This document shows positions 17,284-19,115 of a stretch of DNA of 23,864 nt, piece by piece (within the stretch, counting starts at the first letter, position 1; the number at the start of each line of letters is the position of its first letter). The DNA comes from a virus. The notes beneath the pieces were generated by a model, which was not told the DNA's origin, searched no databases, and saw only the letters and a program-made list of their open reading frames with translations. The translations under genes and the position numbers were made by a program. The stretch lies in the IMG/VR virus record IMGVR_UViG_3300021088_000102. One strand, 5' to 3'.

Positions 17284-18474
17284 CTAAAGTCCATTGAATT
17301 CATCCGCGTTTCTAATATATACTTCTTTTCCTAGTATTTTAGGTTCAAATTGTTTCCAGATTTGGACTTTCCAGTCCCCGCCTGATAAGCACGCGAACAA
17401 TATCGGGTGAAGATTCGCCGGCTCCTGTTGTATAGCCATGGCCCACACTTTCCTAGTAGCCCTCTCGTCAGGCTTGGGCGTCGTTCTAGTAAGCTGCGAT
17501 GTAGAGAAAATCGCCACTCTTCCAAACGCTGATATAGCTTCAGATTCGGTTTTATCATACATCCTCTGAAATGTGGTTATCCACCCTGTACACCATTCAA
17601 CAAATTGTTTGTTATGAATAGCTGGTCTCCACAAAGCTTCAGGATCATATCCAGACATCAAATGTTCCCATATACCTTTAGGGTTTAGACCTGTAATTAC
17701 TTTATGTAGTCTAACATATTCCTCGGTTTTTATTTTTATACGAAGCGGTATCGGGGCTTTAGAGTTCCAGTACTGGAGGACAAAACCCTCTCTATTTGAT
17801 TCCGCAAATGATTTGCATTTTTCAAGGGTAAATTCTTGATATTCTGTAGCCACCCGAAGCCCATTACGATTTCCCCATGTGCTAGTTTCCTCAGACGATA
17901 ACTCAAAACCTGTCTTGATGTTAACGAGCCCCAAAAGAACGAGACCCTCGTACTCATAGCTGACGACAATTCTGTTCTCCTTATAGATGATTTCGAAGAG
18001 AGGAGTATATCCTTCTGGCCAATCAGGATCAGTGTATAATCCCGAGTCAGAAGGATGGTAATGCTCATTATACCACTTGGTAGCCCAGTTAGCCTGATCA
18101 GAAGCGAATGAACCTCTGGTGGCAATGTAAGGTTTTCCAGCATAGTGATAGAGGATACCCAGAGACCCATCAAGCTTTTCTAAGACCTTCGGCTGCCAGG
18201 AAGGCAGGTTAACTTCATGAGTCTCTGGTCTGAAGGAGGTGTTCAGATTGAAGAACTTACGAAATGGTCTAGCTAGTACATCTCCAGTACCCGAATCAAC
18301 TATTAATCCACGACATTGCTCAGTAACACTATCCCATATATTATCATGCTGAGCAACATGAGTATAGTTATAAATCTTCAGATTAGGATAATCTGGATGT
18401 TTTATCTCGGATACAACACCCTTAAAGATGTGATCCTTAAGAAGACTGACATTCAGTAAGTCGTTTATGTTCAA
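17284..18474 (-). CDS. rnlA: RNA ligase 1 (T4 RnlA/gp63-like, ATP-dependent)
   Basis: The N-terminal region KIYNYTHVAQHDNIWDSVTEQCRGLIVDSGTGDVLARPFRKFFNLN parallels T4 Rnl1 [48 protein letters not shown]. Ligase motif I is EKLDGS. TTG start with an AAGGAG RBS 8 nt upstream. Confidence 0.85.
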   Translation of the reverse strand: MNINDLLNVSLLKDHIFKGVVSEIKHPDYPNLKIYNYTHVAQHDNIWDSVTEQCRGLIVDSGTGDVLARPFRKFFNLNTSFRPETHEVNLPSWQPKVLEKLDGSLGILYHYAGKPYIATRGSFASDQANWATKWYNEHYHPSDSGLYTDPDWPEGYTPLFEIIYKENRIVVSYEYEGLVLLGLVNIKTGFELSSEETSTWGNRNGLRVATEYQEFTLEKCKSFAESNREGFVLQYWNSKAPIPLRIKIKTEEYVRLHKVITGLNPKGIWEHLMSGYDPEALWRPAIHNKQFVEWCTGWITTFQRMYDKTESEAISAFGRVAIFSTSQLTRTTPKPDERATRKVWAMAIQQEPANLHPILFACLSGGDWKVQIWKQFEPKILGKEVYIRNADEFNGL

Positions 18475-18568
18475 GATATTTACTCCTTGTTATTCCATAT
18501 AGTGCTATGAGTCTTCTTGGTGTCAGAATAATCTGGTGTAAAGAGGGATAGTAATACCACCACTTCAT
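18437..18568 (-). CDS. MKWW-family mini-protein (43 aa)
   Basis: MKWWYYYPSLHQIILTPRRLIALYGITRSKYLEHKRLTECQSS. ATGA overlap with the upstream member. Its 3' end overlaps the rnlA RBS and start, so this is the least certain member. Confidence 0.4.
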   Translation of the reverse strand: MKWWYYYPSLHQIILTPRRLIALYGITRSKYLEHKRLTECQSS

Positions 18569-18702
18569 GTTTTATCCCTATAATACTTCCATCGAAGTTT
18601 GAACTCTCTATAATCAAAGCTGCGATATTTTCTCTCTCTTAGTTTGAGAATGAACTTTCCATGATAGTAATTAGAGTATGAAATTCTGGTCCACCATTTC
18701 AT
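18565..18702 (-). CDS. MKWW-family mini-protein (45 aa)
   Basis: MKWWTRISYSNYYHGKFILKLRERKYRSFDYREFKLRWKYYRDKT. TAATG overlap upstream. Confidence 0.55.
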   Translation of the reverse strand: MKWWTRISYSNYYHGKFILKLRERKYRSFDYREFKLRWKYYRDKT

Positions 18703-18818
18703 TAGAAAGATCTCCTACGCATCTGGCGTCGTATCAGCCGTCTTGTTAAAATAATCACGCAGCTATCGCCATATCCGTCTTTGTGATCATATTTAGGAAT
18801 ACGCAGCCACCAGCTCAT
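18702..18818 (-). CDS. MKWW-family mini-protein (38 aa, MSWW variant)
   Basis: MSWWLRIPKYDHKDGYGDSCVIILTRRLIRRQMRRRSF. TAATG overlap upstream. Confidence 0.55.
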   Translation of the reverse strand: MSWWLRIPKYDHKDGYGDSCVIILTRRLIRRQMRRRSF

Positions 18819-18925
18819 TAGAAAGGTACCTGGTAATATCGATTAATAAGTATTATACAACTATTATGAAGCCAACGCTTTCTATTACGACTATACCAGT
18901 AGTATCTACGACTCCACCATTTCAA
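18818..18925 (-). CDS. MKWW-family mini-protein (35 aa, TTG-initiated)
   Basis: (M)KWWSRRYYWYSRNRKRWLHNSCIILINRYYQVPF. The only in-frame start is TTG, which overlaps the preceding TGA stop (TTGA). Confidence 0.5.
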   Translation of the reverse strand: MKWWSRRYYWYSRNRKRWLHNSCIILINRYYQVPF

Positions 18926-19020
18926 ATTGACCTCTTTCTAGAATCTGCACGATATTTCCTGGGATATATAAATGTATAAGAACGTCTACTAGGATCCCAG
19001 AGTCTTATCCACCATTTCAT
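18922..19020 (-). CDS. MKWW-family mini-protein (32 aa)
   Basis: MKWWIRLWDPSRRSYTFIYPRKYRADSRKRSI. ATGA overlap upstream. Clear paralog of 19017..19115. Confidence 0.55.
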   Translation of the reverse strand: MKWWIRLWDPSRRSYTFIYPRKYRADSRKRSI

Positions 19021-19115
19021 GTTAATTTCCTGCGATACTTTCTTGAATATATTTGAATATGTGATCGTGGTGGATGCCAAAGATCGTCATATGTGCGTAT
19101 CCACCATTTTATCAT
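19017..19115 (-). CDS. MKWW-family mini-protein (32 aa)
   Basis: MIKWWIRTYDDLWHPPRSHIQIYSRKYRRKLT. Starts 8 nt after the stop of the membrane protein gene 19123..19698. Confidence 0.55.
   Translation of the reverse strand: MIKWWIRTYDDLWHPPRSHIQIYSRKYRRKLT

Follow-up and report, generated by a model that had tools for sequence, protein, structure and literature searches.

Arrays of overlapping MKWW mini-genes upstream of an RNA ligase gene in uncultured jumbo phages

The stretch analysed here, hereafter the window, comprises 23,864 nt of the ~215-kb genome of an uncultured phage (IMG/VR record IMGVR_UViG_3300021088_000102), and the subject of this study is an array of mini-genes at 18437..19115 on its minus strand, directly upstream of the RNA ligase gene rnlA, whose predicted products begin with Met-Lys-Trp-Trp or a close variant (the MKWW or, more generally, MxWW family). 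Several described systems resemble it in part. The internal proteins of phage T4 are a highly diverse set whose only common feature is an N-terminal capsid targeting sequence, and their fast diversification has been ascribed to an arms race with host nucleases (PMC3012670). T4 also tandemly amplifies the counter-defence gene tifA via microhomologies of 6-10 bp, and TifA too bears a cluster of positive charge (PMC9391042). Two synthetic hexapeptides, KWWCRW and WRWYCR, bind to Holliday junctions and forks of DNA through stacking of Trp on bases together with Arg contacts, and they block RecG, RuvABC and tyrosine recombinases (PMC2532710). Leader peptides of the trpL type are, like the mini-genes, encoded by short open reading frames (ORFs) with two adjacent Trp codons, located upstream of and coupled to another gene. 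A short, strongly cationic and Arg/Trp-rich composition is typical of membrane-active peptides, and the T4 internal-protein loci are located near tRNA genes.

The mini-genes of the window differ from each of these systems. As with the T4 internal proteins (IPI, IPII, IPIII and their polymorphic relatives), their products are clustered small basic proteins with one short shared N-terminal motif; however, the predicted MKWW peptides are 3-5 times smaller, their motif covers about 6 residues and holds no protease site, their genes overlap serially at stop and start, and no sequence similarity to the T4 proteins is found. Gene accordions (T4 dmd-tifA; poxvirus K3L) likewise consist of tandem copies made by short-homology recombination in an accessory, anti-defence region, but their copies are recent, near-identical and unstable, whereas the MKWW arrays are old, with subfamilies kept between genomes, and their repeat unit is a single cistron of ~100-130 bp held in register. 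Unlike trpL-type leaders, the MKWW peptides are 26-65 amino acids (aa) long, conserved, free of attenuator RNA structure and encoded up to 13 in series. The hexapeptides share the aromatic/cationic motif K-W-W-x-R with the family, a likeness that is chemical and not evolutionary, but they are synthetic and have only 6 residues, and their active form is a disulfide dimer, while Cys is lacking at the corresponding place in most MKWW peptides. Cationic Arg/Trp antimicrobial and phage lysis peptides are similar in size, charge, Trp/Arg richness and a possible beta-hairpin; in contrast to them, the MKWW peptides are made intracellularly with no signal peptide, as dozens of enzyme-coupled paralogs with no lysis cassette near. 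In kind, this is a known type of system, a fast-evolving, tandemly amplified accessory family of a large phage with coupled translation, although the family itself is new, and its form is unusual in the combination of roughly 40-codon cistrons, strict stop/start register, an invariant Trp-Trp pair and dozens of copies. The reading favoured here, considered somewhat probable as a whole, is that the mini-genes make up a fast-evolving, translationally coupled phage microprotein family whose products would bind nucleic acids within a tRNA-repair and NAD counter-defence island.

Mini-gene arrays in the window and its relatives

The array interval is tiled without gaps by six minus-strand ORFs of 32-45 aa, as described in the first-pass annotation, which had been made from the letters of the window alone (Table 1). 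All six open with the M-(K/S)-W-W motif, the first of them in the extended form MIKWW. On the plus strand the corresponding CCACCA begins at 18557, 18691, 18807, 18914, 19009 and 19101; four of these positions had been given correctly, while the first and the fifth had been placed at 18561 and 19011. Every junction within the array is a stop/start overlap (ATGA, TTGA or TAATGA) with one shared -1 frame relation. This agrees with the earlier description except at the upstream edge, where mini-gene 1 starts 7 nt past the stop of the membrane-protein gene and does not overlap it. Programmed -1 frameshifting into one polyprotein was considered and rejected: the sequence TTTC-TAA could slip, but most junctions (for example ACATGA and AATTTGA) have no slippery site.

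Regarding chance, none of 5000 dinucleotide shuffles of the region attained six coupled ORFs (each at least 25 aa long) in one chain; the maximum was 3, found once, which excludes chance and bears out the suspicion that the junctions exceed random expectation. Neither strand of the real window has a longer coupled chain than the array. The start pattern DTGNNNTGGTGG has 7 occurrences in the window where 0.29 would be expected, a count attained in 0 of 100 shuffles.

A second array, including a probable degenerate third member (12467..12815), is located directly after the SpoU methylase gene; the degenerate member shares a TAATG overlap with the SpoU stop and an ATGA overlap with mini-gene 7. 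The public contig that includes the window holds six further MxWW genes ~17 kb beyond it (L186 18012-18822). Annotation of identical public contigs includes none of the six ORFs at 18437-19115 and one ORF of the second array. Thus gene callers do miss these ORFs, as had been claimed, but they do not strictly fall short of a length threshold; they are simply uncalled.

As the first-pass annotation had proposed, the family was then sought in related phages, by comparing the rnlA neighbourhoods of nine genomes (that of the window and L008, L006, L009, L011, L080, L220, L221 and L222), the RnlA of these relatives being 58-72% identical. Since RnlA homologues 54-72% identical to that of the window sit on metagenomic contigs of 211-219 kb, the window is assigned by sequence to a clade of uncultured jumbo phages. 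MxWW mini-ORFs were found on the coding strand in all nine genomes, at junctions between ordinary genes, and in all nine an array stands directly upstream of rnlA, the last member reaching the rnlA start by an ATGA overlap or a short extension into it. On the opposite strand at most one MxWW mini-ORF was present in the three loci tallied. The loci include 6 and 3 members in L008, 11-12 in L006, 6-7 in L009, 2 in L011, 11 and 3 in L080, 12, 13 and 10 in L220, 15 in L221 and 3 in L222; array size ranges from 2 to 13 genes, with a maximum of 35-36 copies in one 21-kb locus. The arrays of L220 occupy three holes of 1.2-1.5 kb in its gene calls. Array order in the window differs from that in L008. 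In total, the window genome and its eight relatives hold 112 distinct peptides of 26-65 aa (median 38), and this comparison shows conservation of the family in each of the related ~215-kb phages examined. Contigs L004 and L005 are 100% identical to the window, as are L007 to L006 and L010 to L009, and provided no polymorphism data. MxWW ORFs were not found in the 453-kb phage L012, whose RnlA is 45% identical, nor in the IMG/VR relatives L001-L003, which were retrieved with a single-protein query and have RnlA 25% identical.

The family was not recognised from the letters of the window, and the sensitive database searches then suggested led to the same result. Comparison with 50,697 phage records gave no match, either by megablast of the region, the window itself having no near match there, or by tblastn with the concatenated peptides. 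In searches of 5.8 billion and 1.84 billion catalogued proteins, the family profile matched P0121 and P0122 alone, the latter being mini-gene 8, the only window member found in protein catalogues; the scarcity of matches shows that the genes go uncalled and is no sign of their absence. The best PHROGs match had an E value of 0.054 and concerned one member only, Pfam gave no match below E 0.03, and a PDB profile search gave none at E<=10. Two-motif scans of IMG/VR had 0 matches. A three-motif scan found 53 loci in IMG/VR and at least 120 in metagenomes, nearly all of them simple repeats or repeat proteins, with L080 as the sole true relative. A pattern scan of genome contigs gave another 32 loci, all rejected as unrelated: they are REP-like repeats and Sel1-type repeat proteins, and tblastx showed no similarity.

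A family of more than 100 genes, covering up to about 18% of a 21-kb jumbo-phage stretch, is thus essentially invisible to annotation, and apparent intergenic DNA of large phages can be dense microprotein coding sequence. The signature of the family is very simple and searchable, and the arrays would represent an extreme natural case of serial translational coupling and of in-register gene birth by duplication.

Coding constraint, peptide anatomy and junctions

The proposed check for coding constraint was performed on 13 reciprocal-best cross-genome ortholog pairs, for which the proportion of nonsynonymous differences (pN) was 0.36 against a saturated proportion of synonymous differences (pS) of 0.79. 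A nucleotide-only alignment of the same pairs gave mismatches of 38, 29 and 48% at codon positions 1, 2 and 3 (chi2 p=2e-8), and the pattern between the window and L008 alone agrees with it (p=0.004). Trp3 is present in 112 of the 112 members and Lys2 in 88; residue 4 is Trp in 109 and Phe in 3, including one orthologous W/F pair, and Arg6, found in 83 members, is encoded by all of AGA, CGA, CGC, CGT, AGG and CGG. When MKWW is removed, subfamilies such as WWERRE..HYDG..R[IM]S[IV]R[IL]W and WWMRH.NGGI[KR]L still recur across genomes, and only 22 of 1540 stripped pairs score above the 99.9% null score. The kinship of mini-genes 1 and 2, noticed at the outset, also stands. Taken together, these comparisons provide good support for the mini-ORFs being protein-coding genes under constraint, and the related genomes uphold the initial picture of a duplicated, diversifying cassette family of real mini-genes.

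These data also bear on a reading at the DNA or RNA level, in which CCACCA/TGGTGG serves as a site for protein binding or of the Chi kind, or the region is a single gene that has decayed or undergone frameshifting. The 3' core of E. coli Chi reads TGGTGG, the motif is strand-specific, and the two MSWW starts of the window, at 18807..18818 and 12712..12723 on the minus strand, read ATGAGCTGGTGG, which holds the Chi octamer GCTGGTGG on the coding strand. However, the octamer is confined to those MSWW starts of the window and L008 that write Ser as AGC, whereas L006, L009 and L220 use AGT or other codons; a Chi site was rejected, the octamer not being conserved among relatives. In addition, the W-to-F variants break the DNA motif, the motif always makes up codons 3-4 of an ORF that has a Shine-Dalgarno (SD) sequence before it, the junctions have no conserved slippery sequence, and no longer ORF spans the array interval in any frame. 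No tandem or long direct DNA repeat was present either: Tandem Repeats Finder reported nothing but an 8-nt motif at 18437-19115, and a repeat finder gave only direct repeats of 12-32 nt around the starts. A repeat acting as DNA or RNA is therefore largely refuted and hardly credible.

Alignment of the family revealed invariant Trp3 and Trp4 columns, the three Phe members apart, and a nearly invariant Met1, with a mean column identity of 21-22%; identity between paralogs is mostly 15-50%. The consensus reads M-K-W-W-(hydrophobic/R)-R, followed by a loop of variable length rich in Gly, Pro, Asn, Asp and Tyr, then by a short hydrophobic strand closing in (P)R-[KR], present in 104 of the 112 members, and lastly by a basic tail that often ends R-R-S-F. 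The products had been described as very basic and aromatic, and among the 57 members for which composition was calculated the median isoelectric point is 11.4 and the net charge +4 to +12; Arg makes up 18% of residues, a 4.3-fold enrichment, Trp is enriched 3.2-fold even with the Trp-Trp pair left out, and Asp, Glu and Ala are depleted. A type I toxin or other small membrane protein was rejected, the central hydrophobic run being only 3-6 residues long and the Arg content 18%. Two AlphaFold runs, both with a nine-sequence alignment, predicted strands at residues 4-7 and 15-18 for mini-gene 2 (predicted local distance difference test, pLDDT, 64), and strands at 4-8 and 19-23 with a basic C-terminal helix at 26-36 for mini-gene 4 (pLDDT 69). 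These models suggest, with low confidence, a beta-hairpin of residues 4-8 with about 15-23; in a Foldseek search against PDB they gave no match below E 7, being too small and uncertain for fold search.

Members of double length, 63-65 aa, were observed in L006 (13277-13662) and L220 (12159-12350). Their second half resembles a degenerate second unit, for instance ...NFWLWNK...FWVGFKNRR, which suggests an in-frame fusion of two cassettes.

The constancy of M-K/S-W-W, as first reported, proved to have two sources. Trp-Trp and Arg6 are kept at the amino-acid level, while Lys or Ser at position 2 is mostly accounted for by the need for an A after ATG: the resulting ATGA includes the TGA stop of the preceding ORF, and in 54 of 56 members the first letter of codon 2 is A. 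Overlap of the start with a stop was observed at 49 of 50 junctions, an arrangement fit for the translational coupling that had been proposed. Each unit opens with ATGAAATGGTGG or a close variant, often with TTCTA before it, and this is the sole long identity between units; the nucleotide logo comprises ATGAAATGGTGG together with 'agga' at -11..-8. Peptide tails read AGGAGG-TCN-TTY-TRA, so the C-terminal RRSF codons appear to be largely the SD sequence and spacer of the next cistron. An SD sequence written into the preceding tail speaks for each downstream ORF being meant for initiation.

A mechanism may be outlined from these features. The mini-genes would be co-transcribed within a long minus-strand operon and translated by serial termination-reinitiation, each ATGA or TAATG start holding the preceding stop, and an AGGA or AGGAG SD sequence 8-11 nt upstream, inside the RRSF codons of the previous peptide, would aid reinitiation. 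Unequal or ectopic recombination at the conserved junctions (ATGAAATGGTGG with SD/TTCTA) could expand, contract and shuffle the arrays in register. Such recombination would explain why register is kept, the size range of 2-13, the difference in order between the window and L008, and the single cassettes found between other coupled genes. The outcome would be birth-and-death evolution, arrays ranging from 2 to 13 genes and totals reaching about 36 in 21 kb.

The position of the Trp codons raises the possibility of regulatory leader peptides, in which tandem UGG codons 3-4 sense charged tRNA-Trp or tRNA damage and set translation of rnlA or other downstream genes through coupling; Trp-tRNA sensing had been among the initial suggestions. 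UGG UGG is found at codons 3-4 in 109 of 112 members, the last array member always overlaps a downstream start such as that of rnlA or the NUDIX gene, and the neighbourhood is devoted to tRNA repair. However, array mRNA is no more structured than shuffled sequence (minimum free energy z=0.17), and terminator-like sites number six in 4.2 kb against 2.9 +/- 1.6 expected, and none of them separates the array from rnlA. Neither these sites nor promoter-like ones clearly exceed chance, up to 13 ORFs in series are unlike an attenuator design, amino-acid conservation reaches well beyond Trp-Trp, and the downstream genes are unrelated to Trp. The suggestion was therefore not upheld, and a leader function is very improbable. 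Structure, codon and conservation data contradict the leader-peptide and DNA-motif readings alike. Rfam detected no RNA family in the array region, and a structured RNA was rejected on this ground and on that of the fold z score.

Another explanation is that the peptides are inert filler, retained because duplication at ATGA junctions keeps the flanking genes coupled. Copy number from 2 to 36, order shuffled between relatives, the modest constraint, and a second position and RRSF end explained by stop/start and SD needs all suit this explanation. It is nevertheless quite unlikely: Trp-Trp is invariant, Arg6 is held through six synonymous codons, and the central hydrophobic strand with its Arg recurs in nearly every member; Arg and Trp are strongly enriched despite a genome GC content of 39%, orthologous subfamilies are kept between genomes whose RnlA is only about 60% identical, and the mismatch pattern over codon positions is that of coding sequence.

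Candidate functions

Nucleic-acid binding in host takeover or counter-defence is favoured because KWWxR and the overall composition resemble the synthetic binders, and because the genes lie in a tRNA-repair and NAD+-salvage neighbourhood. In the proposed scheme each peptide would form a small beta-hairpin, in which an N-terminal KWWxR strand pairs with the central hydrophobic strand ending (P)R-K/R and is followed by the basic tail. The peptide would bind a polyanion, likeliest structured RNA/tRNA or branched DNA, via Trp stacking and Arg-phosphate contacts, and the peptides together would constitute a diversifying host-takeover or counter-defence set expressed alongside the tRNA-repair and NAD+-salvage genes. 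These are the weakest steps of the argument, with nucleic-acid binding itself suggested by composition, the resemblance to synthetic peptides and the neighbourhood. Several further points weigh against the favoured reading. Constraint is modest, with pN/pS of about 0.46 and saturated pS, and nucleotide-level needs (ATGA, SD) account for part of the conservation. Copy number from 2 to 36 may mean that individual members are dispensable. The AlphaFold models, with pLDDT of only 64-69 and no match to a solved structure, lend the hairpin low confidence, and the composition suits membrane-active cationic peptides or packaged polycations equally well.

The latter possibility, packaged internal polycations, assumes that MKWWxR is a targeting handle and that the variable basic bodies neutralise the charge of the 215-kb genome or are co-injected as anti-restriction factors, the high gene dosage ensuring bulk supply. 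As in the T4 internal proteins, a short N-terminal motif is carried by diverse, very basic bodies; 35-36 copies occur per 21 kb, and the glutathionylspermidine synthase of the phage points to polyamine handling. Packaging is nonetheless unlikely, given that [LIVM]xE, the L/I-x-E type of prohead-protease site, is present within the first 25 residues of only 5 of the 112 members, that the genes stand among auxiliary and tRNA-repair genes and not structural ones, and that the T4 internal proteins greatly exceed the peptides in size.

Membrane activity, of the antimicrobial or 'disruptin'-type lysis kind, would have the cationic Arg/Trp peptides permeabilise or remodel the host envelope. A membrane-protein gene is directly upstream of the array in the window, and PspA/IM30 and TPM-domain genes adjoin arrays in relatives. 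On the other hand, this function is improbable: signal peptides as well as amphipathic or transmembrane segments are lacking from the MKWW peptides, the enzymes to which the arrays are coupled (RnlA, NUDIX) are cytoplasmic, a lysis function would not be expected to come in dozens of paralogs, and no lysis genes are seen nearby. Precursors of ribosomally synthesised and post-translationally modified peptides were also considered and rejected, since the conserved N-terminus covers only about 6 residues, against the 20 or more expected of a leader ahead of a variable core, and no modifying enzyme is co-conserved; a radical SAM gene was found only in L009 and L222 (7 and 3 copies) and is absent near the large arrays.

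Returning to nucleic-acid binding, a more specific form of it, put forward only tentatively and with considerable doubt, is a new class of phage counter-defence or host-takeover factors: a library of ~40-residue Trp/Arg hairpins with a KWWxR 'claw' stacking on exposed bases, each subfamily adapted to its own structured nucleic acid or nucleic-acid enzyme, and the whole evolvable by in-register cassette recombination. Within this proposal subfamilies might, for example, shield tRNA anticodon loops from host anticodon nucleases, jam host junction and fork processing, or serve as a cofactor of the phage's reduced RNase P RNA. Should the peptides indeed bind tRNA, other RNA or branched DNA, the designed Trp/Arg junction-binding peptides would have natural counterparts, and the tRNA-repair and NAD+ counter-defence island would hold a new type of phage-host weapon.

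Genomic neighbourhood

The window encodes a T4-type RNA ligase 1, Thg1, SpoU methylase, NADAR, NAMPT and NUDIX proteins, a peptide deformylase, glutathionylspermidine synthase, three tRNAs and a vault-protein-like gene. Across the window and its relatives, array neighbours include RnlA, an Rnl2-like ligase, PNKP, Thg1, SpoU, NADAR, NAMPT with NUDIX, tRNAs and RNase P RNA. Judged by gene content, the window (1..23864) and the corresponding regions of L006, L009, L220 and L221 read as a tRNA-repair and counter-defence island. The features discussed here are listed in Table 1.

Table 1. Positions of the mini-genes and other features of the window
Feature	Position	Strand	Description
mini-gene 1	19017..19115	-	MIKWWIRTYDDLWHPPRSHIQIYSRKYRRKLT; MIKWW; 32 aa; L008 ortholog MKWWMLCYDDVFHPPR...
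mini-gene 2	18922..19020	-	MKWWIRLWDPSRRSYTFIYPRKYRADSRKRSI; MKWW; 32 aa; paralog of mini-gene 1; ATGA overlap with mini-gene 1
mini-gene 3	18818..18925	-	MKWWSRRYYWYSRNRKRWLHNSCIILINRYYQVPF; TTG start; MKWW; 35 aa; TTGA overlap; GAGG 6 nt upstream
mini-gene 4	18702..18818	-	MSWWLRIPKYDHKDGYGDSCVIILTRRLIRRQMRRRSF; MSWW; 38 aa; TAATGA junction; L008 ortholog 50% identical
mini-gene 5	18565..18702	-	MKWWTRISYSNYYHGKFILKLRERKYRSFDYREFKLRWKYYRDKT; MKWW; 45 aa; TAATGA junction, AGGAG before it
mini-gene 6	18437..18568	-	MKWWYYYPSLHQIILTPRRLIALYGITRSKYLEHKRLTECQSS; MKWW; 43 aa; 3' end overlaps rnlA start by 38 nt
rnlA	17284..18474	-	T4 Rnl1-type RNA ligase; PF09511; phrog_562; TTG start codon at 18474; downstream gene, predicted to be coupled to the array
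signal-peptide/membrane protein gene	19123..19698	-	191 aa; upstream neighbour
mini-gene 7, second array	12586..12723	-	MSWWKRFSTGYPNNKLFIAITWRKYPYTLKTGLPSYHFHRRRVTI; MSWW; 45 aa; L008 ortholog 56% identical
mini-gene 8, second array	12467..12589	-	MKWWVRRSVTAYSTWIRLSFSGKYEYLDWPLKPSWLIPYR; MKWW; 40 aa; P0122 in protein catalogues
probable degenerate third member, second array	12720..12815	-	MWIRFYLRGRHSYITRLMLPRGRWSDTPFKK; MWIRF...; 31 aa
RNase P RNA	10996..11265	-	Rfam; in relatives L006 16466-16714; L220 15886-16140; L221 15619-15843; L080 7694-7943; L222 14430-14681
vault-protein-like gene	13433..15853	-	806 aa
small basic ORFs with (K)YFALRF(W)	5194..5298; 5335..5481; 6854..6994	-	uncalled
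ORF MTNWWTVTSS...	11412..11501	-	29 aa; outside the MKWW family
tRNA-Ile(TAT)	5051..5143	-	93 nt; ARAGORN

Relatives add PspA/IM30 with a TPM domain beside the arrays. PTH2 is encoded in L220 and L221, the genomes with the most mini-ORFs, and was not found in the window; deformylase and peptidyl-tRNA hydrolase may be connected with the abundance of very short ORFs.

The RNase P RNA locus matches RF00010 (bacterial RNase P class A) over its full length (1-367) and reaches the gathering score, with 100-130 bits, in only 225-270 nt. It has the appearance of an RNase P RNA gene of bacterial type, strongly reduced and located among the tRNA genes of the clade. No report of a phage-encoded RNase P RNA surfaced in a literature search.

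The 806-aa product of the vault-protein-like gene matches Pfam Vault_3 and MVP_shoulder (major vault protein), as does its L008 ortholog of 812 aa, and has no match in PHROGs; such a gene is unusual in a phage.

Three uncalled small basic ORFs, located in ORF-free gaps by tRNA-Ile, share a (K)YFALRF(W) motif (MPYTVRAW...AFYAMRF, MAYSVDLW...YYALRFWYRL and MSHIHIFRGKYFALRF), and the similar KGKYFGLRFWY is present in L080; they may represent a second hidden small-protein family. A conserved ATGACCRACTGGTGGACC motif, which recurs near L006 15534 and near L009 14365, opens the 29-aa ORF MTNWWTVTSS.... Finally, the tRNA-Ile(TAT) predicted by ARAGORN falls below the gathering score of the Rfam tRNA model and may be intron-containing, atypical or a false call.

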